A stretch of 64,000 bases of DNA from an uncultured Bacteroidota bacterium (GCA_946404125.1 CAMJCK010000017.1:349-64348), one strand, 5' to 3'. Positions 17,213 through 54,802 are shown, counted from the first letter of the stretch. The notes: a model not told the origin generated them from the sequence alone. Made by a program: numbers and translations.

Positions 17213-17297
17213 GGAGAGATGGCAGAGTGGTCGATTGCACCGGTCTTGAAAACCGGCGTGCTGAGAGGCACCGGGGGTTCGAATCCCTCTCTCTCCG
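17213..17297 (+). tRNA. tRNA-Ser (anticodon UGA)
   Basis: GGAGAGA acceptor stem pairs with TCTCTCC. Anticodon arm CCGGT-CTTGAAA-ACCGG, long variable arm (GTGC...GCAC), T-loop GGTTCGAATCC. No encoded CCA. Confidence 0.93.
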
Positions 17298-17299
17298 CA
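17282..17299 (+). repeat. attL core (direct repeat, part of the intact tRNA-Ser 3' end)
   Basis: AATCCCTCTCTCTCCGCA, identical to 54785-54802. Confidence 0.9.
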
Positions 17300-17333
17300 T
17301 ACTTAGACTGATAATCAGTTAGTTAAAAGCAAG

Positions 17334-17353
17334 TGCTTACATTTTTGATTACA
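17334..17353 (+). repeat. End-proximal repeat shared by both island ends
   Basis: TGCTTACATTTTTGATTACA here versus TGCTTACATTTTGATTACA at 54651-54669, same orientation. Confidence 0.8.
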
Positions 17354-17402
17354 AAATTGTAGGCACTTTTTTCTTTTTGCCACTTCATTATTTTACAATT
17401 TT

Positions 17403-17665
17403 GGTTTACAGCACATTCGTACATAAAATACCGAATATCAGGAAATTACCATCTATTTGAGCCTAAAACTGTAAACCTTGGCAATAACGGTAATAATGTA
17501 CGTAATTATTTGAATATCAACAAGAAACAAGGGTGTATAAACGGCAAAGGTTTACAAGATTTACAGGGTATTCAACTGTGAATCAGCTTGTTGCGCAATT
17601 TTGTAAACCGTAAACCTTTCGGTCCAATTGTTTTCAACTTAACTATTTGTAAACATGGTTTACAA
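17403..17665. repeat. Cluster of GGTTTACA / TGTAAACC 8-mers (left end of island)
   Basis: Copies at 17403, 17469 (rc), 17549, 17558 (GATTTACA), 17602 (rc), 17610 (rc), and the palindrome TTGTAAACATGGTTTACAA at 17647-17665. Confidence 0.85.
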
Positions 17666-17820
17666 CTTAATTGGCTTATATATAGCTATTTGATAGTGCT
17701 GTAAAGTTGTAAATAAAAGTGTTTACTGAAGATGAAAATAGAACTTATATGCTATTTTACAATGATTTAATTTAAACCCTATTCCATTTAAAAATAAATG
17801 TAACTTGATGGAAAGAATTA

Positions 17821-18573
17821 TTATTTCTGATTGTTCTCTGATTTCAGCAATGTGATTTGCCGCTTTAGTTCTGAGATCTCTTCGTCCTTCCTCTTGAGTT
17901 CCAGCTCAAGGTTGTATTTTTCCTCCGATACCTTCATATACATCTTTGATAGCATTGAGGGTTCACTCATGGGGGAATTCGACGAAAAACCATCTTCTAT
18001 TTTATTAAGTGAGAATTTGCCATTTATGGCCATTGCTTCTTCATTGAAATATTTAGTGATTGAAAAGTGTACATTGTACAATTCACAGTACTTATCAGCA
18101 AAATTGTCTGATAATGTTCTTGATGTATAGATTGAAAGGCCTACTTTTGAATATTTTAGTTTTTTGGCAACAGTTTTCCTTGTGATGCCCTTATCTTTCA
18201 GGTCATTTAGTTCCATCGCCAACCATGCCTTTTTAAAATCGGAGAAACAAAAATATTTAGACTCTTCGTTCATGGGGCGGCAACCGGGATAATTAATGGC
18301 ACTTAGCGCATTCCCTCTTTCAACGTAAAAAATACCATAACCTTCATAAGATTTATTCACCACGAAAGCTAGTTGGTACGCCTTTGAAAACCTATCAAGA
18401 AAAGCATCAGATGGCATTCTACTAAGTGCATTGGATAATGCGGCCGCAGTCATCCCTAAAGCAGATGCTATTTCTGCTTTTTTTATTCCCTTGTGTAACA
18501 ACCAATCAATTTCAAATTCAAACCATGTTTTTTTGAATTCTGAGAAGTTGTTGACTGTTCTTGACACTTCCAT
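17821..18573 (-). CDS. Hypothetical DNA-binding protein with an internally duplicated HTH-like module and a C-terminal coiled coil
   Basis: Two about 90-aa copies: FSEFKKTWFEFEIDWLLHKGIKKAEIASALGMT... and FSDFKKAWLAMELNDLKDKGITRKTVAKKLKYS.... C-terminus LELELKRKDEEISELKRQITLLKSEN. Confidence 0.5.
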   Translation of the reverse strand: MEVSRTVNNFSEFKKTWFEFEIDWLLHKGIKKAEIASALGMTAAALSNALSRMPSDAFLDRFSKAYQLAFVVNKSYEGYGIFYVERGNALSAINYPGCRPMNEESKYFCFSDFKKAWLAMELNDLKDKGITRKTVAKKLKYSKVGLSIYTSRTLSDNFADKYCELYNVHFSITKYFNEEAMAINGKFSLNKIEDGFSSNSPMSEPSMLSKMYMKVSEEKYNLELELKRKDEEISELKRQITLLKSENNQK

Positions 18574-18703: not shown

Positions 18704-19627
18704 TTAGTCATTTTGATTGATCACAATGTTGACTCCGGTGTGAGATAGAGCTATACCCTTCTTTTTCAGGAGTTTGCTTATTTCTCTTGTCGATTTCCCT
18801 TCTTTATGCAGTTTACTAATCAGTTTATCCCGTTGCTCATTATCTTTTCGAATTCTATTTTGTTCGGTAAATAGATGCTCAGCCTCTCTACTGGTACCTA
18901 ACTCGTTAAATATCAAATTATTTTCCTTTTTAACCAACTTATATTCGAGGACATTATCTTCATTGTATAGGCATTCCCCATTTCGAGTCTTAGTCTGTTT
19001 TACGTAGACTATATTTTTTCCTTTCACGCTGGGTACGATAGCGAATGCAGATTTACAAAAGTTTGATAAAGCCTTAGACCCCGCCAAAGTATCTGACGAC
19101 ACAGGAACGCTCTTATCTCGCTTTGGTGTGTGACCCACTAACATAATAGACATGTCTGAGTACTTGTCCACCAGGCATTTAAACATTAAAACAAACCGCT
19201 TAGCCTTATCGAAATTTGTAGGGTCATCCAGAATGATAGATATGTTGTCTACAATAAAAAATCTGATTTTGTTTTTTACGTATATGTTTTCAATACATTC
19301 AACCATCCGTGTGCCATCCAGCGTCATCATCTCCTCGGATGTTGGTTCGGCGCGGCAGAAGAATTCGCCTAAAAAATCCTTGGAGAAACGAGACATGAAC
19401 TCACGTTCTGTGAGTTCAAAATCCACATACAATACTTTTTCTTGCCGTTTTTTAGAAACTTCAACGCCCAATCCAACTGCAAAAATAGATTTTCCTGTGC
19501 CGGCTGGTCCGTACAAAATACATAAATCGTTTTCAAGCCAAAACGATTTGGCATCCAATGCCTGGATTCTTTCTTCTTCACGCAGATTTTCCATGTTTTT
19601 AGCAAGTTTAAAATTTAGAATACTCAT
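18704..19627 (-). CDS. RecA/DnaB-like P-loop ATPase (AAA_25 type) with C-terminal resolvase-type HTH
   Basis: Walker A ILYGPAGTGKS, Walker B FFIVDN, IMLVGHTPKRD; C-terminal KSTREISKLLKKKGIALSHTGV. Confidence 0.65.
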   Translation of the reverse strand: MSILNFKLAKNMENLREEERIQALDAKSFWLENDLCILYGPAGTGKSIFAVGLGVEVSKKRQEKVLYVDFELTEREFMSRFSKDFLGEFFCRAEPTSEEMMTLDGTRMVECIENIYVKNKIRFFIVDNISIILDDPTNFDKAKRFVLMFKCLVDKYSDMSIMLVGHTPKRDKSVPVSSDTLAGSKALSNFCKSAFAIVPSVKGKNIVYVKQTKTRNGECLYNEDNVLEYKLVKKENNLIFNELGTSREAEHLFTEQNRIRKDNEQRDKLISKLHKEGKSTREISKLLKKKGIALSHTGVNIVINQND

Positions 19628-19659: not shown

Positions 19660-19953
19660 TTATTTTTTGTTTTTCGATAAAGAATCGCCGCCACTATCGG
19701 GAATCACTTTGAGGGTCTGCAAAACTATATCTGAGTCAAACGCCACCTTACGCCCTATCTGATACAACGCGACATCTATAATGCCTGAGTTTTTTAAAGA
19801 TTGAGCCTTAGGGATGCTGATATTCAACAGTTTTGCCAACCCTTTGATTCCATAAACAAGATTGGGCGTTTTTGATTTTTGAATCGAGTCGAGACGCTCA
19901 AGAATTTTGATCAGCAGTGATCTTTCATCTGAATTAAAATTTATTTCTTCCAT
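19660..19953 (-). CDS. Excisionase-family / MerR-like HTH protein
   Basis: 97 aa from ATG 19953. GIKGLAKLLNISIPKAQSLKNSGIIDVALYQIGRKVAFD resembles HTH_17 excisionase-type proteins. Confidence 0.6.
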   Translation of the reverse strand: MEEINFNSDERSLLIKILERLDSIQKSKTPNLVYGIKGLAKLLNISIPKAQSLKNSGIIDVALYQIGRKVAFDSDIVLQTLKVIPDSGGDSLSKNKK

Positions 19954-20400
19954 AATAATAAAATTAACGATTAGACTTTGCAAATATGCACATAATTTAA
20001 ATATATGCACTATTTGCACGAAATATTTTTAACGTTTAATCATTTTGATGTAATAAACAATTATCCTTGCTTCCTTTACAACGCAAAGAAGCGACAGCAA
20101 CATGATAAGCGACAACGAATGCTGTTACGCTTGATTGGCTCTTTCTCTATGAGTTTTTTTTCGTGGAGAGGAGGCATACCTATAATAAACAAAGGAATGT
20201 CTAAACGTTGTATTCATCATTTCACAAAACCGCGAGTTCATAGGCAATTATTCTTCTATAGGTTCAATGTCTTCCTCTTCGATATAGCCCGTTCCGTCAC
20301 ACAGTACGCATCTGCAGAATTCTCCGCTACGCATATAAGGCCTTCGCCAAGGCGCCTGCTACAAGTCACGAAGGCAATTCTGGCTTCTAATGTAGAAAAA

Positions 20401-20649
20401 TCAAATACTTGTGCTTTTGTGCCAATGCCAGTGGCATTTGTAACACAATGTTTCAACCAATTCTTGCGGATGATCCCAGGGGGCATTTCCTTTAATATAC
20501 TTTTTGTGGTGCACATATAGTTCATTCTCCGATTTCTTCTGGTGGCAGTTTTGACAGGTGTAATTGTCCCGCTCTAAAATGGTTTTTCTGTACTCTTTCC
20601 ACTCAGGCCTTTTCAGTAATTTTTCGTAGTTATAATGCTTATTTTCCAT
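20401..20649 (-). CDS. Small HNH endonuclease
   Basis: 82 aa from ATG 20649. The CQNC...HHKKY...CYKCHWHWH pattern is an HNH/zinc-finger nuclease motif. Confidence 0.7.
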   Translation of the reverse strand: MENKHYNYEKLLKRPEWKEYRKTILERDNYTCQNCHQKKSENELYVHHKKYIKGNAPWDHPQELVETLCYKCHWHWHKSTSI

Positions 20650-21404
20650 TTTTAGATAATTTTTTTCCGCCCCTGATAACGCAGCCTGCATTTAAGCGAG
20701 CATTAAGGTTTTATTTGGTCGGTTATGGGCTCGCGGTTGTCAAGACGCGGATACCGCCGTCTTGACAATAAATGCACGCGGAGTTAGATTGGGAAAAAGA
20801 ATTATCCGGGCTAAACAGAGATGTAGGATTGTAATACAGTGATTTTGTTTGTTGGATTGTTTGTTTGTTGGATTGTTTGTTTGTTAAAATTTTGTTGGAT
20901 TGTAATATTGTTTGCTATTAAATGGCATTGGGGAAACAAATAAGAAGAAGCGTGAAACCATTCACTTTTTCCATTTCCATCATCTCAAAAATCCCCTAAA
21001 AAACCTACCTTTACACCGCTGTTGCAACATATTTTGCTGCAGCGCTACATACATAAGGCGTCAGACTGATGCTTGTTTTTGGCTTTCTGAAAACTTAGGA
21101 ACTTTCATAAAAGTGTATCAAAAACAATGCAAAAGATGATGCCACGGGTGTGATATACATTCCGGGGTGTGCATTGGGGCGTTATGTCCCTGCACGCTTT
21201 CTCGGACTATATACACGCAACGTGGGTATCTCTTTGCTTGTCCATACACAATGGTTTCCTAAGGCCACAGAAAGCGGATGAGTTAAGATTCAGATACTCA
21301 CGTTTTTTGTTTGTAGCCAGTAACATTTGAGTAGCAATGTTTCCGAATCAATAGTTTGGAAGTAGTTGAAAATAATATAGACCGATTGTTTAATATCAAG
21401 GGGA

Positions 21405-23627
21405 ATGCAAATGTCCAATACACACAAAATTATGAAAACACCAGAAGAAAGATTTGAGTATTACAAAGCACTCGCGTATCAATTCGGGAAAGATGGAAAT
21501 GAAGATGGTAAGCAGGCTAAATATAGCAATCTATGGTTTTTTGCAAAGACTAAATACGAAGACCTGAATCCTTTAACGAAGTGTTTTTTAGGGGATAAAT
21601 CTTGTATCCTTAAAACAAGCACATCCGAAGGTTACGAGCAATACATAATAGATAAAGATTTAAATGAAGAGCAGAAAAAAGCAATAAAGACTTCATTAGA
21701 AAATCCAATTACAATCATTCAAGGCCCTCCTGGAACTGGTAAAACTAAAACTATTTTCAATCTTTTAGCATGCATAAAAAGTTTAGGGAGGACCGTAGCA
21801 ATGGTTTCTTCAAACAATCTTGCGATTATGGATGTTGAAGAAAAAATTGATGAACACGATGATTTGAGAAATTCAACTGCTTTTTTGGGGAATAATACGA
21901 AGAAAAGTGAATTCAACAATATCAATAAAAGTGGGCCTAAAAAAGGTTGTCCGATATATCGTTTTACAACAGAAAATAATGGGAAGAAGCAAATTGAATA
22001 TGAATATGAAAACACAAAATATGTGCATCCAATTGAGCCACAAATTAAGATGGTATTTTTTCTGAAAGATTTTCCAATAATTACAAGCACTATACAATCA
22101 CTCAAATCAAATTTTGAAGATAGTATAGACCAGTTTTTTGATTATGTGGTTATTGATGAAGCTTCGTTAATAACCATTGATTTGGGAATTCTTGCAATGA
22201 CTTCCGCAAAGCAACTTATTGTTGTTGGCGATGATAACCAATTACCGCCGGTGGTAAATGGTGAAGATTTGAAGAAAATTGATAAAAAATTCAAAATCGA
22301 TGATAAGGATATTTACAAGCAAACAGAAATAACAAGTTTCATGAGAATTTGTGAAGTCATGTTCAATATAAAACCAATATGTCTAAAACAGCATTATCGC
22401 TGTCATCCTGCAATTATTGGTTTTTGTAATGAATACGTATATACAAAGGCTAATGAAAAATTAGATTTAAATCCCGTTAGAAACAATACAAAGATAGCCA
22501 CTATTAATGTGAAATGCCCCATTCGATTGGTTTATTATGAAGGGGACTATTGTGAATCGTTAAACGGGGGGAGCAAAGTCAATCGGAAACAAATCAATGT
22601 CTTTCTCAACGAGGAATGGGACAGTTTTATCGAGAAAGTCAATTCAGGAAAAAAGGTTTGTATCATGTCGGGATTTAAAGGACAATTAGAAGAACTGAAA
22701 AAAGGGTTGAAAGATAAATTGACAAATGACAATGACATAAAAATGGAATTGCTGGAGGGATTAAGTGGGGTAGAAATTTTAACAATACATAAATCGCAAG
22801 GTTCAGAATTTGATGTTGTATATCTGTTGCCCGTAGAAGACAACGAATGGAGTTTGTGGAGCCAACAAAAGCGGTTGATAAACGTGGCTGTTTCAAGAGC
22901 AAAAGAAGAACTGGTCGTTATTACCTCAACGCATTTAATGAATCCAGATTTGCAACAAGAATTAGGAGTTGAAATATATTGTTCTTTATCTGATACTATA
23001 CAGCATTATGGTAGAACGAGACATTATGGAAAGGATTGGGATAAAGAAGAAAGGTTCGTTCAGAAACTAACTGATTATGCATATGAACAATTTAAAGAAA
23101 ATAATGAATTTAAAGATGGCTATTATGGATTTCACAAGTCTGGTTTAACTTCAATTTTTGATACAGCAAAACGAACTTCAGAAAAAGATTTTGATTCTGG
23201 AGAGCCTTCAGGCTACGAAAATAAATGTGCAGAAGTGTTGAAAGATATTGTGAAGGAATATGAAGGCCGGATAGAAATAATACTGGAAATGAAATGGGAA
23301 GATTGTGAAGAATTGAAACATAAGAAATGGCTTGAAGAAATCAAGCAAGAATTATATGGTACAGGATTTACTTCAGACGAACTTGATTACTATAAGCACA
23401 ATAGGCGTTTCGATTTTATGCTAGTTATAGATGGGAAAAATAAACTTGTTATTGAAGTAGACGGGGAATTTCATAGGAAAGATGAAAACAAAAAAGAAGT
23501 AGATATAATTAGAGATAGTATATGTCAAAAAGCGGGAATAGAAGTTTTACGTTTGCCAACAGATGGCTCTAATAAGGAATATGAAGTAGATACAATAAAA
23601 AGAAAAATAGAAGAATTAATGGATTGA
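21405..23627 (+). CDS. SF1 (Upf1/Dna2-like) helicase fused to a C-terminal DUF559/Vsr-like endonuclease domain
   Basis: IIQGPPGTGKTKTI, VVIDEASLI, LIVVGDDNQLPP, HYRCHPAIIGF, TIHKSQGSEFDVVYL, INVAVSRAKEELVVI. C-terminus FDFMLV...LVIEVDGEFHRKDENKKEVDIIRDSICQKAGIEVLRLP. Confidence 0.8.
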   Translation: MQMSNTHKIMKTPEERFEYYKALAYQFGKDGNEDGKQAKYSNLWFFAKTKYEDLNPLTKCFLGDKSCILKTSTSEGYEQYIIDKDLNEEQKKAIKTSLENPITIIQGPPGTGKTKTIFNLLACIKSLGRTVAMVSSNNLAIMDVEEKIDEHDDLRNSTAFLGNNTKKSEFNNINKSGPKKGCPIYRFTTENNGKKQIEYEYENTKYVHPIEPQIKMVFFLKDFPIITSTIQSLKSNFEDSIDQFFDYVVIDEASLITIDLGILAMTSAKQLIVVGDDNQLPPVVNGEDLKKIDKKFKIDDKDIYKQTEITSFMRICEVMFNIKPICLKQHYRCHPAIIGFCNEYVYTKANEKLDLNPVRNNTKIATINVKCPIRLVYYEGDYCESLNGGSKVNRKQINVFLNEEWDSFIEKVNSGKKVCIMSGFKGQLEELKKGLKDKLTNDNDIKMELLEGLSGVEILTIHKSQGSEFDVVYLLPVEDNEWSLWSQQKRLINVAVSRAKEELVVITSTHLMNPDLQQELGVEIYCSLSDTIQHYGRTRHYGKDWDKEERFVQKLTDYAYEQFKENNEFKDGYYGFHKSGLTSIFDTAKRTSEKDFDSGEPSGYENKCAEVLKDIVKEYEGRIEIILEMKWEDCEELKHKKWLEEIKQELYGTGFTSDELDYYKHNRRFDFMLVIDGKNKLVIEVDGEFHRKDENKKEVDIIRDSICQKAGIEVLRLPTDGSNKEYEVDTIKRKIEELMD

Positions 23628-24439: not shown

Positions 24440-25018
24440 ATGTACGAACAGAATACATATCTATCATCCGCTAGTGTAAAGAAGCAAGGAAGAACGGCTT
24501 ACTACAAGATGCTTGGAAGCGCTCGTCAGGGAGACCTGATTCGAGTGCGCCGTGGCGTTTATGCCAATATCGACCAACTTGGCGGCAATATGATAGACAT
24601 TGAAACTGTTGTGCCAGACGGGATTCTTTGTCTTTGGTCAGCCTGGAGCGTTCATCGACTTACCACATCAATGCCACAAGCCTTTCATATCGCCATTAAG
24701 AGAGACAGAAAGATAAAAGTTCCTTCCTTTCCAAAGATTGAGGTTCATCATTATACCGTTGCTATTCTCAACATTGGGGCGGTTTCAATGAATATTGATG
24801 GCTACAACATCCGCATATACGATGTGGAACGTTGCGTATGCGATGCTGTGAAGTTCCGTAACAAGATAGGAATGGATGTCTGCTCTGAAATAATCAATAA
24901 TTATTTGGAACGACCAGACAGGAACCTGACTAAATTGATGGATTACGCCCGTCTGCTTCGTGTCGGAAACATTCTAGAACTATATCTACAGGTAAACCTA
25001 TTAGCAAAGAAGATATAA
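24440..25018 (+). CDS. AbiEi-family antitoxin-like transcriptional regulator (no AbiEii partner)
   Basis: N-terminal ARQGDLIRVRRGVYAN motif typical of the AbiEi N-terminal domain; 192 aa. Confidence 0.6.
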   Translation: MYEQNTYLSSASVKKQGRTAYYKMLGSARQGDLIRVRRGVYANIDQLGGNMIDIETVVPDGILCLWSAWSVHRLTTSMPQAFHIAIKRDRKIKVPSFPKIEVHHYTVAILNIGAVSMNIDGYNIRIYDVERCVCDAVKFRNKIGMDVCSEIINNYLERPDRNLTKLMDYARLLRVGNILELYLQVNLLAKKI

Positions 25019-25084
25019 AGTACTATGGTTTCATCGAAAAACAGACTTGCTCTTTCTATTGTTGTATGGCCATTATAGCCGTCA

Positions 25085-28012: not shown

Positions 28013-28017
28013 AATTA

Positions 28018-44059: not shown

Positions 44060-44123
44060 TTCAAAAATGGAAAAGACTTTATTAATATTCTATTAAGAGT
44101 GTGACGAATGAAAAACAGATCAT

Positions 44124-44722: not shown

Positions 44723-45190
44723 TATGTATAGAGCCGAGAGAGCCAGCATTACATTTTTCAGGTTGGCGCGCTGATAGTTCGGAATGCTATTCTCAGGTTC
44801 GTCGATCCTATAATGTTTGACAAGATTGTATTCCTGCCACCACCCAGCGGCAGACTCACTATCGAATCCAGCAAACGGAACCAAATTGATTTTTTCATAG
44901 GGGTATCTTGTGGATACTTTCTGGTTCTTAATCGAAGGTTCATTGTCAACAATTATGGCCATCTTTTGTAATATGTTCTTTGCTTTGGGCGAAGTTTTGA
45001 CAATCTTGCAGTATTCCTCGGCAATAGAATCGACCTCGCTGCAAATATTCAAAAACAAATAAATGTAGCGATGGGAAAATGTCTTGTAGTTGCTTTTGTC
45101 AATAGCAACATATTCTTCCGTTTCAAGAAAATCTTTTTCAAGCAAAAGATACTGTTTCCAGAAGATTTTGGTAAATAATTGTGGTGTCAT
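44711..45190 (-). CDS. Hypothetical protein, possibly HEPN-like
   Basis: 159 aa, all-helical looking. C-terminal GWWQEYNLVKHYR...ANLKNVMLALSALYIL resembles the motif helix region of Abi-type HEPN proteins. Weak assignment. Confidence 0.35.
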   Translation of the reverse strand: MTPQLFTKIFWKQYLLLEKDFLETEEYVAIDKSNYKTFSHRYIYLFLNICSEVDSIAEEYCKIVKTSPKAKNILQKMAIIVDNEPSIKNQKVSTRYPYEKINLVPFAGFDSESAAGWWQEYNLVKHYRIDEPENSIPNYQRANLKNVMLALSALYILCL

Positions 45191-45225
45191 GATTCTGTGT
45201 TTTAGGTTTGTTATTCTGTATTGAA

Positions 45226-45330
45226 CTATACTCTATTAAAATCGCCCGTTACGTTGAGTGGATTTTCGACAAGAAACTGCTCGTTCTGCGAGAATTCCAA
45301 ATGTAAATCGCTGACAAATTGAATGCGCAT
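45226..45330 (-). pseudogene. 5' fragment of a metallophosphoesterase gene (34 codons, then stop)
   Basis: MRIQFVSDLHLEFSQNEQFLVENPLNVTGDFNRV-stop. It carries MPE motif I (D-x-H: SDLHLE) and motif II (GD), then ends. Confidence 0.55.
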
Positions 45331-45432
45331 TGTTTTGTATTGGATTTATGACGGATTATGCTCTGTAATTTAAGTTATTACTACATCATGTATATTGTTC
45401 TTAAAGTCAAATGTGCAACTTGACATTTAATC

Positions 45433-46017
45433 TTAAAAATATCGGAAATACTTGCTGAACAACTTGAAAAACTCACTTTTGCATTTTTCGCGGTAACGCT
45501 CTATTTCCTTTTCGCACTTGCGATACGAATTCCATACTTTGCTGTATTCCTTCCCGTTAACAGGGTCATCTATGGGTGTGTACATCCGAATGCCATCGCT
45601 TTTTTTATCTTCTTCCGTTTGCAACTTCTCACCTAAAAAACCATATTTCTTTTCAAAGATTCTCTCTATTCGGTTCCACTCTTTGTCGTATGGATTTTTC
45701 ATAGAACATTTGTTTTCGTTCATCTCGTCGGCGAGAAAGACCAAATGCTGAATCATATCTAACCAGCGTTTTAAATACATGTAATTTTCTTCGGTACTAA
45801 GAGGTTTGTCAAAACTGATAATATTCCCTTTCTCGTCCAACAAGAAGAATCCTGGAGTCTTTTTTGCCAACTGCTTCAGCATCGGACTGATTGTGTTACA
45901 AAACCAATAATCTATCGATAATACATCGCTGTCGCTGAACCCGCGTTTTGCCCTTTGTTTTGACATTCGCTCTTCATATTCAAAGTCTATTATTTCTCGT
46001 GTGTGCTTTTTCGCCAT
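45433..46017 (-). CDS. Hypothetical protein
   Basis: 194-aa ORF, K/E-rich, with no motif I can assign. Confidence 0.5.
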   Translation of the reverse strand: MAKKHTREIIDFEYEERMSKQRAKRGFSDSDVLSIDYWFCNTISPMLKQLAKKTPGFFLLDEKGNIISFDKPLSTEENYMYLKRWLDMIQHLVFLADEMNENKCSMKNPYDKEWNRIERIFEKKYGFLGEKLQTEEDKKSDGIRMYTPIDDPVNGKEYSKVWNSYRKCEKEIERYREKCKSEFFKLFSKYFRYF

Positions 46018-46073
46018 AGTTGCTAGTATTAAATTGATACTCGGTTAATGCGTTTAAATATAATTCTTTTTAA

Positions 46074-46155
46074 AAAATCGCCCATTAGTGAGTGGTCGGG
46101 TGCGGTCGCAGGTACAACTTCAACTAATGGACTTAATCAGAAAGGCAATGCGCAC
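46074..46155 (-). pseudogene. Second, more decayed copy of the metallophosphoesterase 5' fragment
   Basis: GTGCGCATT... start (versus ATGCGCATT) and ...CCACTCACTAATGGGCGATTTT end (versus CCACTCAACGTAACGGGCGATTTT). The middle has diverged and a stop follows 11 codons in. Confidence 0.3.
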
Positions 46156-46200
46156 CTAAACCATTGGTCATTAACGCATTCTGATTCATTGGTGATTTTA

Positions 46201-46890
46201 TCACAGTTTTTCGTTTTCTTCCATCAGACTTTCGTCGGCAATCATATTAACGGCATTCTCGAGTGAGCCGTAATCGCCAGCCACTACTGCTTGTTTTGTT
46301 TCATAGTTCATTTCGAATTTCAACCGCACACAGCCGTCGTCATAATATTCCGTAAATCCCCAAATTGGGTGGGCGTGCGTAACACCGCCATCGGGATAAA
46401 CATAAAATGCACGGCCATCTTGAAGATAGCACATCTTGCTATTGGCAGGGTTGAAAAACAAAATCAAATCCTTTCCCCACGCCGATTGCCAATCTCTGCC
46501 GTATTTCTTGATAGAGAAAGGAATACCTTGTGCAGTACTATCAATGGCATATATATTGCTTGTCCAAATGACTTTGCCAGTTTTCCCAAAATAATCACCA
46601 CTGCCAGTCAATTTGCCATCGCGGAATGAGAGTTTCACTCCGCCTCCTTTTGAACACAAATCTGCAAAATACTCGTAACAATAATCCAATACTGTGCCAT
46701 CTTCCTCAAATTCAAGATAATCAGCATCAATTAAATGGGAATATTCGGTGGAATAGTGCTTCCAAAGCCTGACCATATCATCGAAACCTTCGCGGGTGGG
46801 TGCGACATCGTAAGTGATTAACCGCAAAGGGTATTCGGTGCGGTTGAGCATTGTCGGAAGGTTGTCGGGGTTGAATTCTTGTGTGCTCAT
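46201..46890 (-). CDS. Hypothetical protein
   Basis: 229-aa ORF, 44 nt downstream of the third phosphoesterase gene. No motif recognised. Confidence 0.55.
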   Translation of the reverse strand: MSTQEFNPDNLPTMLNRTEYPLRLITYDVAPTREGFDDMVRLWKHYSTEYSHLIDADYLEFEEDGTVLDYCYEYFADLCSKGGGVKLSFRDGKLTGSGDYFGKTGKVIWTSNIYAIDSTAQGIPFSIKKYGRDWQSAWGKDLILFFNPANSKMCYLQDGRAFYVYPDGGVTHAHPIWGFTEYYDDGCVRLKFEMNYETKQAVVAGDYGSLENAVNMIADESLMEENEKL

Positions 46891-46935: not shown

Positions 46936-47811
46936 TTATTTTAAAAAGGCCTCCAACCATTCGTCTATATTTTGGGGCTTTTTCCGACCACGGTGGGTCA
47001 CTTCTTTCCATGGGATTTCGTCGATTAGGGTTGTGTCAAGTAAAGCACCTTTTCTTTCCTTATCATCATTGCTATCGACAACGATAAGGCGGCGGCTGCC
47101 TGATTTAAAAGCGCCCAAACCAATTCGCGTATGTCCGACAACCTGACATTTTATTCGCGGTGGCCAGTTTTTGGCTTCAAACAATGCCCACGGCCTTACC
47201 CATACACAAGACGCATCGTTGCTGCTACCATATACGTCGTCCCCTATAAGGTCGAAATAGGAAATGCCATTCTTTCTGGAATCAAAATCATAATGCATTA
47301 CGAAATTCAAAGATTCAGGATTGAATGAGTTGACGTTTAAAGATTCCCATTTCCGTTCGTTATTAGGCGAAAAACTTTTCTTGCTATTTAATTTAGAAAA
47401 CTGCCCAACCACTCTTTTGTAGAAATCCATTGTCACCCCCGCATGTGAGAACAAACAACCATCAATCAGATAGACAACGTTCAAAATATCGAGATTATCC
47501 CTGAACATTTCCCTGTAATAATTCGCCATGTCGCCGTGGTGCCGCGAGCAATATATAGCATCTCTGCCGCTTGAAATGTAACTCATGTCATGATTGCCAA
47601 GGCAAAGACAGAATTTATCGGGCTCTTTGCGGGCCATCTCGCACAGCATCCAGAAATCATTAACCAGACTGTCGTTATCCAGTCCTTGCTCGTACCCGTC
47701 AGCATAACCACCCAAAACAACCACCTTGTCAACGTGGTCTTTGTGCTCGTTGATTACGCTAAAGGCATCATCAAATTTTCCGTGAATGTCAGGTATTACA
47801 AGAATTTTCAT
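46936..47811 (-). CDS. Calcineurin-like metallophosphoesterase (PPP-like, divergent motif II)
   Basis: LVIPDIHGKFD, VVLGGYADG (where GDxxDRG is expected), CLGNHDMS, VVGHT; 291 aa. Confidence 0.75.
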   Translation of the reverse strand: MKILVIPDIHGKFDDAFSVINEHKDHVDKVVVLGGYADGYEQGLDNDSLVNDFWMLCEMARKEPDKFCLCLGNHDMSYISSGRDAIYCSRHHGDMANYYREMFRDNLDILNVVYLIDGCLFSHAGVTMDFYKRVVGQFSKLNSKKSFSPNNERKWESLNVNSFNPESLNFVMHYDFDSRKNGISYFDLIGDDVYGSSNDASCVWVRPWALFEAKNWPPRIKCQVVGHTRIGLGAFKSGSRRLIVVDSNDDKERKGALLDTTLIDEIPWKEVTHRGRKKPQNIDEWLEAFLK

Positions 47812-48401
47812 CGGTTTTCAGTTTTGCATTGCTTAATAACATTATCTATCTCGGTGAACGATATTGGCTTATAGTCATTATTATCTACCCCGACATCGTA
47901 TTGTGTGGGGAACAGGTGCGCCAAGCGTGGAATATCCTTGCCATACGAGAAATCAGAAGTATGGACGTGCCCGAAGAATTGGTATGTCTTGAACGTGTTG
48001 TAAGTTCCAGCGTAGCAAAGGAACGGGTAATGGTTTAGAATGATTTTCCGATTATCTACAATAATCGACATTTGTTCGGCAACGTTGATAAGATTTTTGT
48101 ATTGGTGGCGACGGTCGAAATACTTGCGGTCGTGGTTTCCCAATACAAGGTGTATGCGGCCGTTGAGTTGGGATAGAATGCCGTCCCACATTTTCACATT
48201 GCCAAAACAGAAGTCGCCCAAATGGAACACAACATCGTCTTTGCCGACGCGGGCATTCCAATTGTCAATCAGCGCCTGGTTCATTGCTTCAACACTGTCG
48301 AACGGGCGGCCATTCATGCGTATTATGGCTTCGTGACAAAAGTGAGTGTCGCTGGTGAACCATACGGGCTGGCCGCTTATTATCATATCGTAGTTCTTCA
48401 T
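47808..48401 (-). CDS. Calcineurin-like metallophosphoesterase (small, Metallophos_2-like)
   Basis: FTSDTHFCH, FHLGDFCFG, VLGNHDR, FFGHVH; 197 aa; 4-nt overlaps with both neighbours. Confidence 0.8.
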   Translation of the reverse strand: MKNYDMIISGQPVWFTSDTHFCHEAIIRMNGRPFDSVEAMNQALIDNWNARVGKDDVVFHLGDFCFGNVKMWDGILSQLNGRIHLVLGNHDRKYFDRRHQYKNLINVAEQMSIIVDNRKIILNHYPFLCYAGTYNTFKTYQFFGHVHTSDFSYGKDIPRLAHLFPTQYDVGVDNNDYKPISFTEIDNVIKQCKTENR

Positions 48402-49204
48402 AGGGCTTTTACGTTTCTGATTTGCATTATGTCGAGCGCGGTGAAATCAATGCTGTCAATAGTGGCTTCGTTGTGCAGGTGAAAGTGCCCATAGAACCAC
48501 TGACGCAGCGGGTGTTTGTCGGCAAGCAAACGCTCGTGTATCTTGTCGATTGTGGTGCGTTCCATCTCGCAGTCGATAAAAAGCGCATTGTCGCGAGCCA
48601 GCCATGACTCTATGCCGTTCTTGTTGGTCGGCACACAGAACGAAGGCGCAGTGTGGGTGACCACAGTGTCAATCGGGATTTGCTGTTGTTGCAGTTCGTC
48701 GAGCAATGCAGGCGAATAGAATGGCGGCTCATCTGGCCAGTAGTAGGTATGGCCATCGGCTGCCTGCCAGTTCTTGCGAACGCGGCGGTCAATGCTGATT
48801 GCACCACCAACGCACAGCACATTATGCCCACAACAGCGGACAACGGTGTAATCGGGTATTATCAGGAATCCGTCAGCCGCTTGCCGTTGCTCTGTAAACC
48901 ATGCAGGGTCGTCGTGGTTGCCGCGCAGCATCACCACCGTTACGTTATGCTTGCGAAGTTGCTGGCCGCAATGTTTCAGTTCGTTTTCATAGTATTTGGG
49001 CGAGTGGAACCCAAACCCACAATCGCCTGCAACAATCACTACGGCGTTGTTAAGGTTGTATTTGCTGCATATAGTGAACACCAACGTGCGGAACTCACCG
49101 TGAATGTCGCCGCAAACAAGTAAGTGTTCGGCGTTCGGGAAGTCTGCCGTTTCTAGGTGACGGTTATCGGGATTGTTCAGATAGTATTCGGTCATAATAT
49201 TCAA
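48398..49204 (-). CDS. Calcineurin-like metallophosphoesterase (PPP-like)
   Basis: LLVCGDIHGEF, VIVAGDCGFG, LRGNHDDP, VVTHTAP, YGHFH; 268 aa. Confidence 0.8.
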   Translation of the reverse strand: MNIMTEYYLNNPDNRHLETADFPNAEHLLVCGDIHGEFRTLVFTICSKYNLNNAVVIVAGDCGFGFHSPKYYENELKHCGQQLRKHNVTVVMLRGNHDDPAWFTEQRQAADGFLIIPDYTVVRCCGHNVLCVGGAISIDRRVRKNWQAADGHTYYWPDEPPFYSPALLDELQQQQIPIDTVVTHTAPSFCVPTNKNGIESWLARDNALFIDCEMERTTIDKIHERLLADKHPLRQWFYGHFHLHNEATIDSIDFTALDIMQIRNVKAL

Positions 49205-49225: not shown

Positions 49226-50680
49226 TCAGAAGTTATACTCAATATTGTTGATATATTCCAATAATCGGCTGTTACGTTTTTCTTTGTAATCATCACCTGT
49301 ATATCCACCATTGATTATGATGTCGAGCATTGAAGTTAGGTTACTATATTTAGTGTTGCATTTGTATTTGCCTTGAAAAACCAAACTTCGTGTGTACTTG
49401 AATATGTTGAACGAATAATAGTCATCAATTGTAATGCAAATAATTCCATCGAATACGATGCCTGAAACTTGCATGACGTATGCCGGAGTTTTAATCGCGT
49501 AACCAGGTCCTTCAAATTCAGCCTTTGCTATGAGGAAGGTGCGTTCAATGTTCCATCTCTTATTCCAATCATTTCCCTCACCATAAATACATTTATCAAT
49601 GTCTTGGTATGTATTATTCAATTCTGCTTCATATATATCAGTTTCATAACTCAAACCAACATGGAAAATCCTACGTATATCATAATCAGCATCGAATATC
49701 TCATCGCATAATTCAGGTGTCATTCTCCCAATTCGCTTCGATATGTCTTCAGCCAACTCAAAAGTTCTTGGTATGTAACCATAATTTCTTTTTATGTATT
49801 GGTTTACAAGCTCTTTTACGGCCAACAACAATTCCGTTTCATATTTTGGTTTGCAGATATTAGCACAATAATCCCAATCATGACCTATGGTGAGCACATA
49901 TTCCGCTTTTAAACCAATTCTAGCCGAATTCGGGGTGTTGTTTCCGTTTTTCTCCGATTTGAATAAAAACTTAATATCATTTTCATCAATCTTTTTCATT
50001 AATTCCACATTTACATCTATGTTTTGCCCATCAACACTAAACGTCAACACAAGACCGAATGTCTCGTAAGTATTATTGTAATAGTTCAAACTAACCTTTT
50101 TAAGGCCCCACAGAGACAAGGCATCAACACTCAAAACCTCAACTATACTTTTCCATTTTTTGCAAAATTTTTTTATTACAGATTGCGACAGTTTGGTCGG
50201 CTTGATTGTACCATAAAACGTTTTTAGCACATTGGGATAGAAATATGTCCAATCAACTTTTCTGTCGCAGGATGAGTCGAGCAAAATATATTTGCCATCA
50301 ATCGAAAATCGTAATTTAGTTTTCAGTTCGTTGTAAATAGATGTTATCCGAAATGTGGCTATCCCAAATTTTGAAAGAGATGCGTCATCAAAAACTCTTA
50401 AATTAATCGGTCTGCCATCATCCTCATAACGGATAGTGATTTCGTAGCATTTGAGTTCGTTAATTGTTGTGGCAAATTTTTCAAAATCAGCATCAGCCAT
50501 TCCAACTTCTTCTTTCAAAAGATTGATGGCGGAAATGTTATATTTCATATTTTGGACTAACACTCGCTTCACTATTCTTTCGCGCAAAGTGTCTTCAGGC
50601 AGATGATTCACCCAGTCGGTGTTGTCGTGCTCTGCGAATTCAATTGCTTCTGGCATCTCTTCATAATCGGTGTTGCTCAT
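49226..50680 (-). CDS. Hypothetical protein, first gene of the phosphoesterase operon
   Basis: About 484 aa from ATG 50680 (the track start 50725 is also possible). No motif recognised. 21 nt upstream of the first phosphoesterase gene. Confidence 0.55.
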   Translation of the reverse strand: MSNTDYEEMPEAIEFAEHDNTDWVNHLPEDTLRERIVKRVLVQNMKYNISAINLLKEEVGMADADFEKFATTINELKCYEITIRYEDDGRPINLRVFDDASLSKFGIATFRITSIYNELKTKLRFSIDGKYILLDSSCDRKVDWTYFYPNVLKTFYGTIKPTKLSQSVIKKFCKKWKSIVEVLSVDALSLWGLKKVSLNYYNNTYETFGLVLTFSVDGQNIDVNVELMKKIDENDIKFLFKSEKNGNNTPNSARIGLKAEYVLTIGHDWDYCANICKPKYETELLLAVKELVNQYIKRNYGYIPRTFELAEDISKRIGRMTPELCDEIFDADYDIRRIFHVGLSYETDIYEAELNNTYQDIDKCIYGEGNDWNKRWNIERTFLIAKAEFEGPGYAIKTPAYVMQVSGIVFDGIICITIDDYYSFNIFKYTRSLVFQGKYKCNTKYSNLTSMLDIIINGGYTGDDYKEKRNSRLLEYINNIEYNF

Positions 50681-50956
50681 AGTTGTTTTTTTATTGGTTT
50701 CGTGCTGACAAAAATAACAAATCAAGCCTCAAAAAACAAATAAAAATAGAGTTTAATTTATTGATATTTAATGAGTTAACTATGGGTATGGTCAGATTTC
50801 TCCTGCAGCAAATATATTGGCAGAAACAAGTTTGGTTTTACATTTTTTTAAGTGTGGTCAGTCATCAGGTTAATTGTCAGGTTAATAGGCGTTGAAAAAA
50901 GTCTTTAACATTGTAATTATAGTGGATATTGTTAACTATATTTGCCATGAAATTGA

Positions 50957-52099
50957 ATGATAATGAAAGACGAAAGATTTTGGGAACAAGATGTTAATTG
51001 GGATAATATTTTCGGCCACGGGATACCAGACTTTGATTTTTATGATATAGACTGGTCGTTTAAAAAGCCCTTTAAATCAAGTTCGTGGTTGGAAGGATAT
51101 TATTATGAACTATCATATTGTATTATAGGCAATAATTATGATGAATCAGATGATTTTTGTGATTTTGTCAATGATTTTACAGAAGGGATAGTCAAAGAAA
51201 TAAAAGTCTTTTTGGACGCTTTCATTCAGTCAAACATAAACAAAGGCAATAGTACCAGTACAATTTTCACGAAATTTATTGATATATCCAGTTTCTTGCC
51301 ACAGATTGTTGAGTGCAGCGAACCATTCCCTTACATAGAAAACGACTTGTCAAAAGCACTTCATCGTTGGGAAGATTTTATGTTAAATGATTCTCCGAAA
51401 CCATCACGAAAGTGGGAACTATCAAAAAGACAATTACATAAACAGTGGCTGCCGCCTGAATTTCCATTAAAGCCATCGTCAATCCGCCGCAAGGCGCAGT
51501 CAGTCAAAGCATTTTGCGGATTTCTTTGCCAATATTATGGATTTCATTTTGGAGATTATCAATCATTCCCAGACTACAGCCGGCCGGTTTACAAACAGTC
51601 GCGCAATAACCGTCAGATTACATATGATATCGAAGAGATAGTTAAGAAAATCCCTGTCGGCAGGGAACCTTCCAAAGCATTCATTGGTTACCGTGACAAG
51701 GCGATAATTCTGGCCATAGGCAATATTGGGCTTTCTGTTTCTGAACTGATTGATTTAAACACATCAGATATTGATTGGGACAAATCACTCATTATAGGCA
51801 CAAAACGAGCCCACCCAATCATTGACGAAGATACCCGCCAGGCTATGCGGAAATACTTTGGCATTTGCAGAGAAAAATATGCCAATCACGAAAAATTCTT
51901 TCTGACATCCAAAGGCGAACCGATTTCAAGGGTGAGCGTTTTCAAAATCGTGAAAGAACGTTCAAAACAGGCTGGTTACAATCACATTAATCCACAGATG
52001 CTGCGTGAAACTTTTAAAAAACGCTTGATAAAACGATATCAGAAATCAGAGGCGGCAAAAAGGTTGGGAATAAAAAGGTTGTATAACAGGGATTTGTGA
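50957..52099 (+). CDS. Divergent tyrosine-recombinase-like protein
   Basis: The C-terminal half resembles a phage-integrase catalytic domain (GLSVSELIDLNTSDI, PQMLRETFKKRL, LGIKRLYNRD), but the box-I Arg appears replaced (GLSVSE versus GLRxSE). Confidence 0.5.
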   Translation: MIMKDERFWEQDVNWDNIFGHGIPDFDFYDIDWSFKKPFKSSSWLEGYYYELSYCIIGNNYDESDDFCDFVNDFTEGIVKEIKVFLDAFIQSNINKGNSTSTIFTKFIDISSFLPQIVECSEPFPYIENDLSKALHRWEDFMLNDSPKPSRKWELSKRQLHKQWLPPEFPLKPSSIRRKAQSVKAFCGFLCQYYGFHFGDYQSFPDYSRPVYKQSRNNRQITYDIEEIVKKIPVGREPSKAFIGYRDKAIILAIGNIGLSVSELIDLNTSDIDWDKSLIIGTKRAHPIIDEDTRQAMRKYFGICREKYANHEKFFLTSKGEPISRVSVFKIVKERSKQAGYNHINPQMLRETFKKRLIKRYQKSEAAKRLGIKRLYNRDL

Positions 52100-52142: not shown

Positions 52143-52772
52143 TTATTGCATTCTTTTCCCTTTTTCACTTCTTAAAGAAAGATTGACATCCACTAATGCT
52201 GATTCTATATTTTTCAGAATTTGTATTTGCTCATTATTTAAAGTTGGATTCTCTTCTTTGTTAATGTTTAAATAATGTGCTATTTGATTTATGTTATTAC
52301 CGATTTTTGCTAATTGAAATATTAATTCGCCCAGATTTTTGTCCTCAGTCAGTATAGTAATTTTTTTATCCAGAATTCTTGCTCGTAAATATGCATTGAA
52401 GTCTCTACTCCTTGTTTTTTCCGCTTCTGTCTTTAATTTCTCATATTCTCTTTCTGTAAAACATATTGTTTTTTTCTTGTTCCTTTTCTCTTCCTCTTCA
52501 ATCGGAGGTCTTCCTCCTAATCGTTTTACATACAACTGAAACTGCAGGAGCAACTTTTTCTTATTCTCAACAGACCACTTTACTCTTTCTTTTGTTGACC
52601 AGTTGAGTCCGTAGTAATAATCTATTTCTCCCGTTCCTGTTATCTCAGTAATATCACTTACGAATGTCTTTGGCAGGACACAGTCTTCATCAATTTTGGA
52701 AATCTTGAATCCGTAATCATTGTACGCAATATCATCAGATTTGATTTTGCCAATATGCTTTACTTTTCCCAT
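52143..52772 (-). CDS. MobC-family mobilisation (relaxosome accessory) protein with an N-terminal extension
   Basis: GGRPP...ICFTEREYEKLKTEAEKTRSRDFNAYLRARIL and LAKIGNNINQIAHYLN (MobC signature); 209 aa. Confidence 0.7.
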   Translation of the reverse strand: MGKVKHIGKIKSDDIAYNDYGFKISKIDEDCVLPKTFVSDITEITGTGEIDYYYGLNWSTKERVKWSVENKKKLLLQFQLYVKRLGGRPPIEEEEKRNKKKTICFTEREYEKLKTEAEKTRSRDFNAYLRARILDKKITILTEDKNLGELIFQLAKIGNNINQIAHYLNINKEENPTLNNEQIQILKNIESALVDVNLSLRSEKGKRMQ

Positions 52773-53222
52773 AACCTTATAATTAAAAAAAACGACGGAA
52801 CGGAGTTCTTTTTCTTTTTTTTATTCCTTGCCACCAGCAGTAACAAAGATAATCAAATTTCTGTGGAACGGAAATTTCAAGGGAAGTTTTGGTTGTACCA
52901 AAACACACCTTGCTATCCGAAAAGATTGTTATTTTATTTATTCGAAAATGCATACAAAAACAGTGTAAAAATTTGGAATGGAAGGGAAGAAATTCGGTAG
53001 TTATTTAATCAATATTCCAAGGATTCACAATTGCCAATCGTTTAATGCCTATCTTCCCAATGAGTACTTTACTCCCTTCCATATAGTTACAAATGAAAGG
53101 GAGAAAAAATCTTATCCCGCTCTGGCTCTTTCCCTACTGTCTATCGTAGTTTTGGCGCCTTGAGCAAATAAGTATCGGTGGGGGACAGCGCCACAATTAA
53201 TCTTGCCTGGTTTCCACCCTTA

Positions 53223-53350
53223 GTTTACATATTATATTATATATTTATATATCAATATGTTATATATGTAAACGTGGTTTACAGGGTTTACAGTTTATCA
53301 TTGTATATTGCTAATACACAATAATATACGGTTGTAAACCTACTTTACAG
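53223..53350. repeat. Cluster of GGTTTACA / TGTAAACC 8-mers (right part of island, at the integrase 3' end)
   Basis: GTTTACA 53223, TGTAAAC 53267, GGTTTACA 53276 and 53285, TGTAAACC 53333, CTTTACAG 53343. Confidence 0.85.
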
Positions 53351-54620
53351 AGAGGAACCCGTTGTAGCATTGCATACTCTTTTCGCGAGCATTATCTAAT
53401 ATATCGATATACGGTTTCATCGCTTTATACGAGCTATGCCCGGTCCAATCCATTATCACCTGTGGTTGAATGCCCATGGAAAGGCCTAGAATAACAAAAG
53501 TTCGGCGTGCAGCGTGAGTTCCAATCAACTCGTATTTGGGTGGGTAAGAATCAATGCGCTGATGCCCAATAATTTGCGTTCTAGGCACGGGTGCAGTTAT
53601 GCCCGCCATTTTCGCTATTATTTTTAAATCAACATTCATTTTTTGATTCGAAATAACGGGAAGTGCTTTATTATTTTTTGTTGGATAATCTTTGTATTTG
53701 TTTAGTATAAAAGATGTTATATCGTTTAATGGAATTGTTATTTGGTCCGTTGTTTTAATTGTGGTTAAATCAATTTGCCCATTCCATATGTTTTCCCTTC
53801 TCAAATTTCGCGCGTCGCTGTATCGGATTCCACTGAAACAGCAAAAAACGAATACATCACGTACTTGCTCGAGATGCTTTTGCGTGCGGTCAAATTCCAA
53901 ATTCCACAGGGCTTTTAACTCTTCGGGTTCCAAAAACACTGGTTTATTGTGAGGCGATTCAAGTTTGGGGTCAAACGTTTCAAAATCAGTGATATTATGG
54001 TATCCTTTCTTGTTTGCCCACCTTAAGAACCATTTAAGGAAACCTAAATTCTTTTTTATTGTTGAATTTTTCATTTTGACATCATCCATAAGATACTTTA
54101 CATATTTGCCAAGTCCATATTCGTTGAAATCTTCGAATGTTGGTTTGGTTTTATAATTGATTATGTGCTTTCCTAATGCGGCAAACTTTTCATGAGTTGC
54201 GGGAGTCCAGTTCCGCTCGAAGCCTTTTTTTTCGATGAATTCATCATAAATAGACAGCAGAGAGCGTGGCATCGAGAGTTTTGTAGAGTTATTGCCATTA
54301 GGATTACGCAATGCGTAATAATCATTGCGCAAATTTTCTGGGCGCGGGATGCTGCCTTTTTTCTCCCACTTGAGCAAAATAGATTCGATGTCTTTCTTCA
54401 TTTTCGCGAGGCGAGTGTTTACTTCGTGTGCTTGGCGGGCTTCATCAACACTGTTGCCGGACTTAAGAATCATCGTTTTTGTGTTCCACCGTTTTGTGGG
54501 AACGTTTATTCCTGTTGAGAATAATACTCTGTTTCCTGCATAAGTGACTACCATGTTAAGACGTGCGTTTTCTGCATCTTTGTACTTGGGATCTAACAAA
54601 AATCTAATGTTTTCTTTCAT
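53340..54620 (-). CDS. Tyrosine site-specific integrase (Bacteroides type)
   Basis: 426 aa. FSGIRYSDARNL (Arg I), GTHAARRTF (H-x-x-R), WTGHSSYKAMKPYIDI (His/Tyr). 165 nt from the right att repeat. Confidence 0.9.
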   Translation of the reverse strand: MKENIRFLLDPKYKDAENARLNMVVTYAGNRVLFSTGINVPTKRWNTKTMILKSGNSVDEARQAHEVNTRLAKMKKDIESILLKWEKKGSIPRPENLRNDYYALRNPNGNNSTKLSMPRSLLSIYDEFIEKKGFERNWTPATHEKFAALGKHIINYKTKPTFEDFNEYGLGKYVKYLMDDVKMKNSTIKKNLGFLKWFLRWANKKGYHNITDFETFDPKLESPHNKPVFLEPEELKALWNLEFDRTQKHLEQVRDVFVFCCFSGIRYSDARNLRRENIWNGQIDLTTIKTTDQITIPLNDITSFILNKYKDYPTKNNKALPVISNQKMNVDLKIIAKMAGITAPVPRTQIIGHQRIDSYPPKYELIGTHAARRTFVILGLSMGIQPQVIMDWTGHSSYKAMKPYIDILDNAREKSMQCYNGFLSVK

Positions 54621-54650
54621 AATTCTGAATTTTTTAAAAAGTTGATAATT

Positions 54651-54669
54651 TGCTTACATTTTGATTACA
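54651..54669 (+). repeat. End-proximal repeat (right copy)
   Basis: TGCTTACATTTTGATTACA, matching 17334-17353 apart from one T. Confidence 0.8.
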
Positions 54670-54784
54670 TTTTTTTTTAATCATTTTAAATGCAAAATAA
54701 CAACCTCGAATCAGAAAAGACAAGTAAAATATTGATTTATAGTAATTTAATAGTTAAATTAAACGTAGTTAAATGAAACCAAGT

Positions 54785-54802
54785 AATCCCTCTCTCTCCG
54801 CA
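54785..54802 (+). repeat. attR core (duplicated 3' end of tRNA-Ser)
   Basis: AATCCCTCTCTCTCCGCA, identical to 17282-17299. Confidence 0.9.

Follow-up and report, generated by a model that had tools for sequence, protein, structure and literature searches.

The window analysed here is a 64,000-nucleotide (nt) stretch of DNA from an uncultured Bacteroidota bacterium (GCA_946404125.1 CAMJCK010000017.1:349-64348), and it carries a 37.5-kb island within a serine tRNA gene of this rumen Bacteroidales bacterium. We consider it highly probable that positions 17300–54784 are an integrative genomic island put into the 3' end of tRNA-Ser(TGA) by its own tyrosine integrase, and that this island belongs to a mosaic family whose members exchange cargo. 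The features at its two ends are the following (aa, amino acids).

17213–17298, plus strand: tRNA-Ser(TGA), intact, its 3' end restored by the island's left repeat (ARAGORN)
17282–17299, plus strand: attL core, AATCCCTCTCTCTCCGCA, an exact 18-bp repeat (two matches against 0.01 expected)
17300–17820, no strand: non-coding left arm with five GGTTTACA motifs, clustered at 17403–17664
53340–54620, minus strand: island tyrosine integrase, 426 aa, with Arm-DNA-bind_5, Phage_int_SAM_5 and Phage_integrase domains
54785–54802, plus strand: attR core, a copy of the tRNA 3' end and the second exact copy of the 18-bp repeat
54824–54854, plus strand: terminator (hairpin, then T-run) just outside the right repeat

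The tRNA-Ser(TGA) is the only tRNA that ARAGORN finds in the window, and AATCCCTCTCTCTCCGCA comprises its last 17 bases and one further base. Exactly two copies of the repeat occur in the window and no third with up to three mismatches; the chance expectation of 0.01 is the average number of matches in shuffled sequence with three mismatches permitted. Because the 18-bp core of the element is identical to the end of the tRNA, insertion restores the tRNA and leaves a second copy of the core at the far end. The integrase gene starts 164 nt inside the right repeat, and the guanine-plus-cytosine (GC) content of the island is 39.4%, below both the whole genome (48.6%) and the flanks (46.5% and 49.3%). 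These results agree with a preliminary description of the stretch, which had reported the direct repeat at the tRNA 3' end, an integrase beside its right copy (at 165 nt), a terminator just beyond that copy and a drop in GC content.

To locate the empty site, the joined flanks (16700–17299 and 54803–55400, a 1198-nt construct) were searched against 40 related genomes. In the congener G003, construct positions 344–1198 align unbroken across the junction with 93% identity, the tRNA runs directly into the terminator sequence that the window has to the right of the island, and a 20-kb stretch lacking 17300–54784 is otherwise collinear with the window to the left and to the right. The hairpin at 54824–54854, found directly 3' of the tRNA in G003, is on this comparison taken to be the original terminator of the tRNA, moved 37.5 kb by the insertion. 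The tRNA match continues beyond the junction in eight more congeners (G001, G002, G004, G009, G010, G011, G012 and G014), with terminator-type sequence after the tRNA in the aligned G001, G004 and G010. The same tRNA-Ser(TGA) is occupied by a related island in G007 and G008, and probably also in G013. The earlier proposal of a true insertion, with an empty-site variant among relatives, is borne out by the empty site of G003 and by the tRNA–terminator junctions of the eight further congeners. A coincidental repeat or an assembly artefact, in favour of which nothing was found, deserves practically no credence in view of the low chance expectation, the exact empty site in G003 and the same att geometry in related islands. 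One tRNA-Ser site is empty in some congeneric species and elsewhere filled by islands that have different integrases and near-identical defence blocks.

The attachment site can also be read from the integrase family. An alignment of four integrases yielded 80 related loci across Bacteroidota with 41–57% identity; the integrase alone as a query against named genomes gave no matches, and an exact look-up in public assemblies returned no record. Since about 30 of the 80 loci share a tRNA-Ser-type core ending in ...CTCTCCGCA approximately 173 nt upstream of the integrase start, near the spacing seen in the window, the 18-bp repeat represents the usual attachment core of these integrases. A DUF3853 gene neighbours the integrase at 56 loci out of the 80, and the nearest named genome is a sheep-rumen metagenome-assembled genome that carries the NCBI label 'Salinivirgaceae bacterium'. 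We envisage site-specific recombination into the 3' end of tRNA-Ser(TGA) by the island's integrase, an enzyme that is presumably still active. The GGTTTACA motif has 13 matches in the window against 2.1 expected, clustered at 17403–17664 and at 53276–53340, just past the integrase stop codon. The motifs in the left arm are candidate arm-type or regulator binding sites; the clusters show no conservation in the islands of G011 or G007.

The island family occurs in an uncultured rumen Bacteroidales genus, in which a relative is labelled 'Salinivirgaceae bacterium' by NCBI. Its backbone comprises the integrase, a MobC-like gene, a second recombinase that is transcribed divergently from the operon encoding an orphan protein of 484 aa and phosphoesterases, a convergent superfamily 1 (SF1) helicase-nuclease, DUF3853, an AAA_25 ATPase and a helix-turn-helix (HTH) regulator. 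Apart from the integrase, given above, these genes and two more lie as follows.

17821–18573, minus strand: HTH_3-type regulator, 250 aa, backbone, 65% identical in the G011 island
18704–19627, minus strand: AAA_25/RepA-DnaB-like ATPase, 307 aa, backbone (Pfam 4.8e-10; PHROG primase/helicase 1.6e-13)
19660–20019, minus strand: DUF3853 protein, hallmark neighbour of the integrase family (Pfam 2e-16)
20284–20649, minus strand: broken copy of a Cys-rich 142-aa gene (tblastn with the intact G007 copy)
21405–23627, plus strand: Upf1-like SF1 helicase fused to a DUF2726/DUF559 nuclease-like domain, 740 aa
24042–24335, plus strand: HTH_17 protein, 97 aa (Pfam 4.7e-10), a candidate excisionase or regulator
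46936–49204, minus strand: three calcineurin-like phosphoesterase genes of 291, 197 and 268 aa (Pfam Metallophos)
49226–50725, minus strand: orphan protein, a 499-aa open reading frame (ORF), first gene of the operon
50957–52099, plus strand: second tyrosine recombinase, 380 aa
52143–52772, minus strand: MobC/NikA-like relaxosome accessory protein, 209 aa, with no relaxase after it

Between and around this backbone, the fast-changing cargo consists of the DdmDE plasmid-elimination pair, a restriction-modification (R-M) system with embedded genes, PDC-M13, AbiEi and several unknowns.

24440–25018, plus strand: orphan AbiEi antitoxin-type protein, 192 aa (PADLOC AbiEi 2.4e-52)
25085–28012, minus strand: hsdR, 975 aa (PADLOC REase_I 1.9e-121; Pfam)
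28157–31300, minus strand: three genes embedded between hsdS and hsdR, namely AlbA_2/HATPase_c_4 (560 aa), LPO_1073-family (361 aa) and an 85-aa ORF
31307–32443, minus strand: hsdS, 378 aa (PADLOC, Pfam)
32431–35495, minus strand: two tandem hsdM paralogues of 512 and 509 aa, about 41% identical to each other
35636–37450, minus strand: ddmE-like gene (Argonaute-like sensor), 604 aa (PADLOC DdmE 1.2e-10; PDB 9iw3 9.9e-15)
37431–40796, minus strand: ddmD-like gene (SF2 helicase and PD-(D/E)xK nuclease), 1121 aa (PADLOC DdmD 8e-42; PDB 9ix4 6.6e-53)
41075–41999, minus strand: DUF3791/DUF3990/DUF3791 trio, PADLOC candidate PDC-M13
42173–44657, minus strand: 2.5-kb indel between diverged repeats of about 65 nt, containing the 622-aa protein and DUF5618
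42191–44059, minus strand: 622-aa AAA-ATPase_like protein (weak Pfam match, 1.6e-7)
44124–44567, minus strand: DUF5618 protein
44711–46890, minus strand: variable cassettes orf159, orf194 and orf229, and a scar at 45242–45330

Other islands of the genus were compared with that of the window. The island of G011, 22.4 kb long, sits in tRNA-Ser(GCT) and has a 15-bp core repeat of its own. Its integrase is 57% identical and its backbone proteins are 50–65% identical to those of the window island, while its orf194, three phosphoesterases and orphan protein are 91–97% identical; this island lacks R-M, DdmDE, PDC-M13, the 622-aa/DUF5618 pair, AbiEi and MobC. The 38.2-kb island of G007, in the same tRNA-Ser(TGA), has an integrase of only 42% identity. 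It nevertheless contains, in inverted orientation, the 15.8-kb block from hsdR to ddmD (25056–40869) at 96% DNA identity, which differs only in half of hsdS and in the embedded slot. In a fourth variant, L113, DdmDE is 96.9% identical and R-M is absent; as the homology ends at 35630, exactly at the start of the R-M operon in the window, R-M, AbiEi and the HTH_17 gene represent an insertion relative to L113. Further variants around the recombinase/orphan/phosphoesterase unit carry complete AbiE pairs, HicB-like, HipA, KAP NTPase or DO-GTPase/GAP1 genes. Related islands of the same genus thus share modules at 93–99% identity, whereas their integrases are merely 42–57% identical, and the cargo is for this reason a shuffled mosaic. 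The module edges are scars, as seen in the truncated phosphoesterase gene at 45242–45330 and in the 622-aa/DUF5618 indel between its diverged 65-nt repeats. We propose that cargo blocks would be swapped by recombination between family members of different species, and that truncated genes would be left behind as scars.

The same observations could also describe a composite of nested or accreted mobile units (the 15.8-kb R-M/DdmDE block and the recombinase/orphan/phosphoesterase unit), each moving independently within an NBU-like mobilisable transposon of greater age. Such a structure is consistent with the inverted, 96% identical block in G007 despite the 42% integrase identity, with the recurrence of the recombinase/orphan/phosphoesterase unit next to different neighbours on both sides, and with the heterogeneous GC content inside the island (49% for hsdR, 50% for the two hsdM genes, 36% for ddmDE and 35% for the left backbone). 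A two-integrase composite mobilisable transposon in tRNA-Ser is moreover known in Bacteroides fragilis (PMC13597742). However, no internal copy of the att core exists even with three mismatches, no terminal inverted repeats were seen at the block edges, and the module edges are truncated genes, which speaks for illegitimate or homologous recombination and not for site-specific insertion. We regard the composite as a serious possibility, though one that stands below an even chance; it is compatible with a single integrative island of mosaic cargo and would alter what counts as 'the element'.

As to the nature of the cargo, three predicted conflict modules are confirmed as complete by homology: type I R-M, DdmDE and PDC-M13. 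In the type I R-M system, hsdR, hsdM and hsdS are all present at full length (PADLOC and Pfam, E-values of 1e-65 to 1e-170). HsdR shares 99.3% aa identity with the G007 copy, and the DNA match of hsdS to G007 covers the N-terminal part alone (31861–32443), the C-terminal half being different. In G007 the embedded slot (L025 15896–18007) is occupied by a GmrSD type IV restriction gene of 703 aa. An array of 11-nt repeats, with units such as CGAATTAT and CGAATTACGTG, separates the AlbA_2 gene from the start of hsdR at 28004–28170 and may be regulatory or variable in length.

The DdmDE pair immediately precedes the R-M operon and has the same orientation; ddmD overlaps ddmE, immediately downstream, by 20 nt. 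The DdmD-like protein matches solved DdmD over residues 54–1076, and within the nuclease domain VDFKYWK is aligned to the LDSKYWK of solved DdmD chains (D-x-K motif). The island pair resembles the solved DdmDE systems (9ix4/9iw3, 8u0u, 8u3k and others) in its overlapping two-gene operon and its DdmD nuclease motif, but the identity of its proteins is low and its DdmE is about 80–110 residues shorter. Just past ddmE, a stretch of 70 bp (35626–35695) is 90% identical to one beside the helicase gene of G011, which lacks ddmDE; this likeness may be a scar from ddmDE loss in G011. For PDC-M13, three adjacent genes match the A, B and C profiles at 8e-34, 2.6e-62 and 5.2e-30. DUF3990 belongs to the ADP-ribosyltransferase clan in Pfam and is found as the tip of Rhs toxins (PMC7955679, PMC4524185), and the protein encoded here appears to be toxin-like, of that clan, with two small partners. 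AbiEi has no AbiEii toxin partner, the end of hsdR lying 67 nt downstream; complete AbiE pairs occur in the relatives L117 and L119.

The preliminary description had rightly recognised a defence cargo, now matched by PADLOC and Pfam, and its helicase-nuclease with an Ago-like neighbour proves to match DdmD and DdmE in PADLOC and among solved PDB structures. Its count of at least seven conflict modules holds in part. Type I R-M, DdmDE and PDC-M13 are complete, while AbiEi lacks AbiEii and the helicase-DUF559 protein matches defence profiles through its helicase core alone, is conserved across related islands and looks like backbone. No PADLOC match was obtained for the 622-aa protein, DUF5618, orf159, orf194, orf229, the three Metallophos proteins or the orphan 499-aa ORF, and the phosphoesterase unit is backbone-like. 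The grouping of a HEPN-like ORF with the phosphoesterase operon has to be abandoned, as DUF5618 goes together with the 622-aa gene in one 2.5-kb indel. The structure model of DUF5618 (predicted local distance difference test, pLDDT, 84.5) shows only weak Foldseek similarity to HEPN toxins (template-modelling score 0.5–0.6, E-value 0.03–0.8), and the HEPN Rx4-6H motif is missing from the sequence and from its conserved columns, so the assignment as HEPN is not supported. The island's systems would presumably defend the host cell.

The SF1 helicase-nuclease and the recombinase/orphan/phosphoesterase unit are found in every variant that is readable there, with varying neighbours. Because they are conserved across islands while their neighbours change, they look like the core of the family rather than cargo. 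The helicase is 52–53% identical in the islands of G011 and G007, and helicases of the same domain type occur in L113 and L117; it has no full-length match to Hhe or Mokosh-type systems, since only the SF1 core of the much longer PADLOC models is covered. Upstream of its gene, where the G011 island has 90% identity, TTTGTTGGATTGTTTGTTTGTT occurs three times (20848–20912).

The second recombinase is divergent from the orphan/phosphoesterase operon in every island whose recombinase side is readable, and the three phosphoesterase genes follow the orphan gene in every variant with a readable operon except G007. An invertible promoter between the second recombinase and the operon was considered and rejected, as no convincing inverted repeats were found there. 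Homologues of the orphan protein begin at Met16 of the 499-aa ORF, giving 484 aa. This protein has no match in Pfam, NCBIfam, PADLOC or PHROG, has seven matches among 1.84 billion representative proteins, is restricted to this genus among 401 sampled Bacteroidales genomes from 236 genera, and yields an AlphaFold model with a pLDDT of 47. PDB sequence searches with the three phosphoesterases returned one uncharacterised homologue and nothing else. In L121 (944–6917), DO-GTPase1/2 and GAP1-N1 genes and a 448-aa Metallophos protein lie beside the unit. One may speculate, at rather long odds, that recombinase, orphan and phosphoesterases form an undescribed functional module, either a defence or counter-defence system travelling with its own recombinase or an engine that recruits and shuffles the defence cargo around it. 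As a small conserved unit and a candidate new system, it is the most interesting residue of the island.

With regard to mobility, a MobC/NikA-like protein is encoded (NikA-like 8.8e-13, MobC 2.4e-8), and the 568-bp non-coding stretch 52773–53339 is a possible location of oriT. Both the MobC/NikA-like gene and the backbone nature of the second recombinase had been overlooked in the preliminary description, which had otherwise correctly noted mobility genes and had recognised no relaxase, type IV secretion or phage structural genes. Pfam, PHROG and tblastn searches concur on these absences. No relaxase was found among the island ORFs with Pfam, PF03432 is missing from the whole 99%-complete genome, and the G007 relaxase as a tblastn query has no match in the genome. 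Type IV secretion and CTnDOT-type transfer genes are missing among the Pfam-scanned island ORFs, and the CTnDOT TraJ family PF07863 is missing from the genome. Because relaxase, transfer and phage genes are lacking, cell-to-cell transfer would need a helper, as had been proposed, and it would now depend on one that supplies the relaxase and the mating apparatus.

The island could accordingly be pictured as a still-working mobilisable element, in which the MobC-like protein acts at an unrecognised oriT and a conjugative element provides relaxase and mating pore in trans. The MobC/NikA-like gene is intact, and the near-identical cargo in different species implies recent horizontal movement. The integrase–MobC–recombinase layout without relaxase also exists in two other members (L119 and L120), which suggests a stable, maintained variant and not fresh decay. 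Against this picture, neither a relaxase nor a CTnDOT-type TraJ exists in the 99%-complete genome, and the G007 island has the full set of DUF3853, DUF6291, the MobC-like gene and a PF03432 relaxase, whereas the window island is without a relaxase. On balance we judge continued mobilisation to be somewhat improbable. A degraded prophage or phage satellite might be suspected from the tRNA attachment site, the integrase, the small HTH_17 protein and the HTH repressor-like gene, but no capsid, tail, terminase or portal gene was matched among the island ORFs in Pfam or PHROGs, where the PHROG matches are limited to the regulator and the helicase ATPase; we consider this origin very unlikely.

Several findings weigh against an active integrative island rich in defence genes. 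Besides the lack of a relaxase in island and genome, owing to which the island could be a fixed remnant, neither the predicted attP junction nor the attR pattern is matched exactly in metagenome contigs. One backbone gene is broken, the Cys-rich gene showing two stop codons in the alignment to the intact G007 copy (the G011 copy is split by a frameshift), and four of the seven modules first proposed lack homologues among known defence proteins. We still favour an integrative island of exchanged cargo, set into tRNA-Ser(TGA) by its own integrase, and regard it as a real, if rather unremarkable, representative of a known class of mobile defence islands.

Comparable elements are known. NBU1 and NBU2 are Bacteroides mobilisable transposons that integrate beside tRNA genes, and the composite MTnBf8 lies at tRNA-Ser with two integrases (PMC13597742). 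Like them, the island is inserted at tRNA-Ser between direct repeats, and it has a Bacteroidota-type tyrosine integrase whose N-terminal domain is of the arm-binding type, an internal second integrase-type gene and mobilisation-type genes. In contrast, it is 37.5 kb long, compared with less than 15 kb for these elements, and its cargo consists of defence systems instead of resistance genes. It also lacks the relaxase by which membership of the NBU type is judged, carrying only the MobC/NikA-like accessory protein.

Another parallel is the 'defence region' of Vibrio cholerae VPI-2, a low-GC tRNA-Ser island with two integrase genes, whose type I R-M operon with embedded GmrSD-like genes is adjacent to DdmDE (PMC11411939, PMC12409362). 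The window island likewise is a tRNA-Ser island of lower GC content with two integrase genes and an R-M operon that contains foreign genes and adjoins DdmDE, and the embedded slot of its G007 relative holds a GmrSD gene, like TgvAB in VPI-2. Presumably even the gene order is the same as the island's ddmD-ddmE-hsdM-hsdS-embedded-hsdR, judging from the locus tags of VPI-2 and the transcription direction that we assume for it. The island differs in its phylum, in its two hsdM genes, in its embedded genes (AlbA_2/HATPase_c_4, LPO_1073-family and the 85-aa ORF) and in the absence of Zorya, sialic-acid genes and a phage-like region. A general linkage of DdmDE with R-M was considered and rejected: four other Bacteroidales DdmDE loci have no adjacent R-M, and neither has the island variant L113. 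As these four loci stand alone, the VPI-2 parallel is a resemblance and not a rule, in which DdmDE beside a type I R-M operon with an embedded slot recurs in another phylum. Like defence islands on integrative elements, the family combines a conserved backbone with defence and toxin–antitoxin cargo that is rapidly exchanged among relatives; here the backbone includes the genus-restricted recombinase/orphan/phosphoesterase unit. The island offers a clean, bounded case of rumen Bacteroidales acquiring and reshuffling immunity genes.

Among the variable cassettes, the segment 45242–45330 retains only the first approximately 30 codons of a fourth phosphoesterase gene, of which G011 has an intact copy, and it is for that reason a deletion scar. 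Repeated fragments between the cassettes were considered as integron-like recombination sites, an idea rejected for the fragment that was checked (45242–45330).

Outside the island, a 1.27-kb segment to the left of the tRNA (15775–17042) with a 363-aa gene (weak TolB-like beta-propeller match) is missing from G003, where its flanks abut, and it is a second small indel beside the island. At the right edge of the window, 63200–64000 is a GC-rich (64%), internally repetitive coding region with multiple staggered matches to G003.

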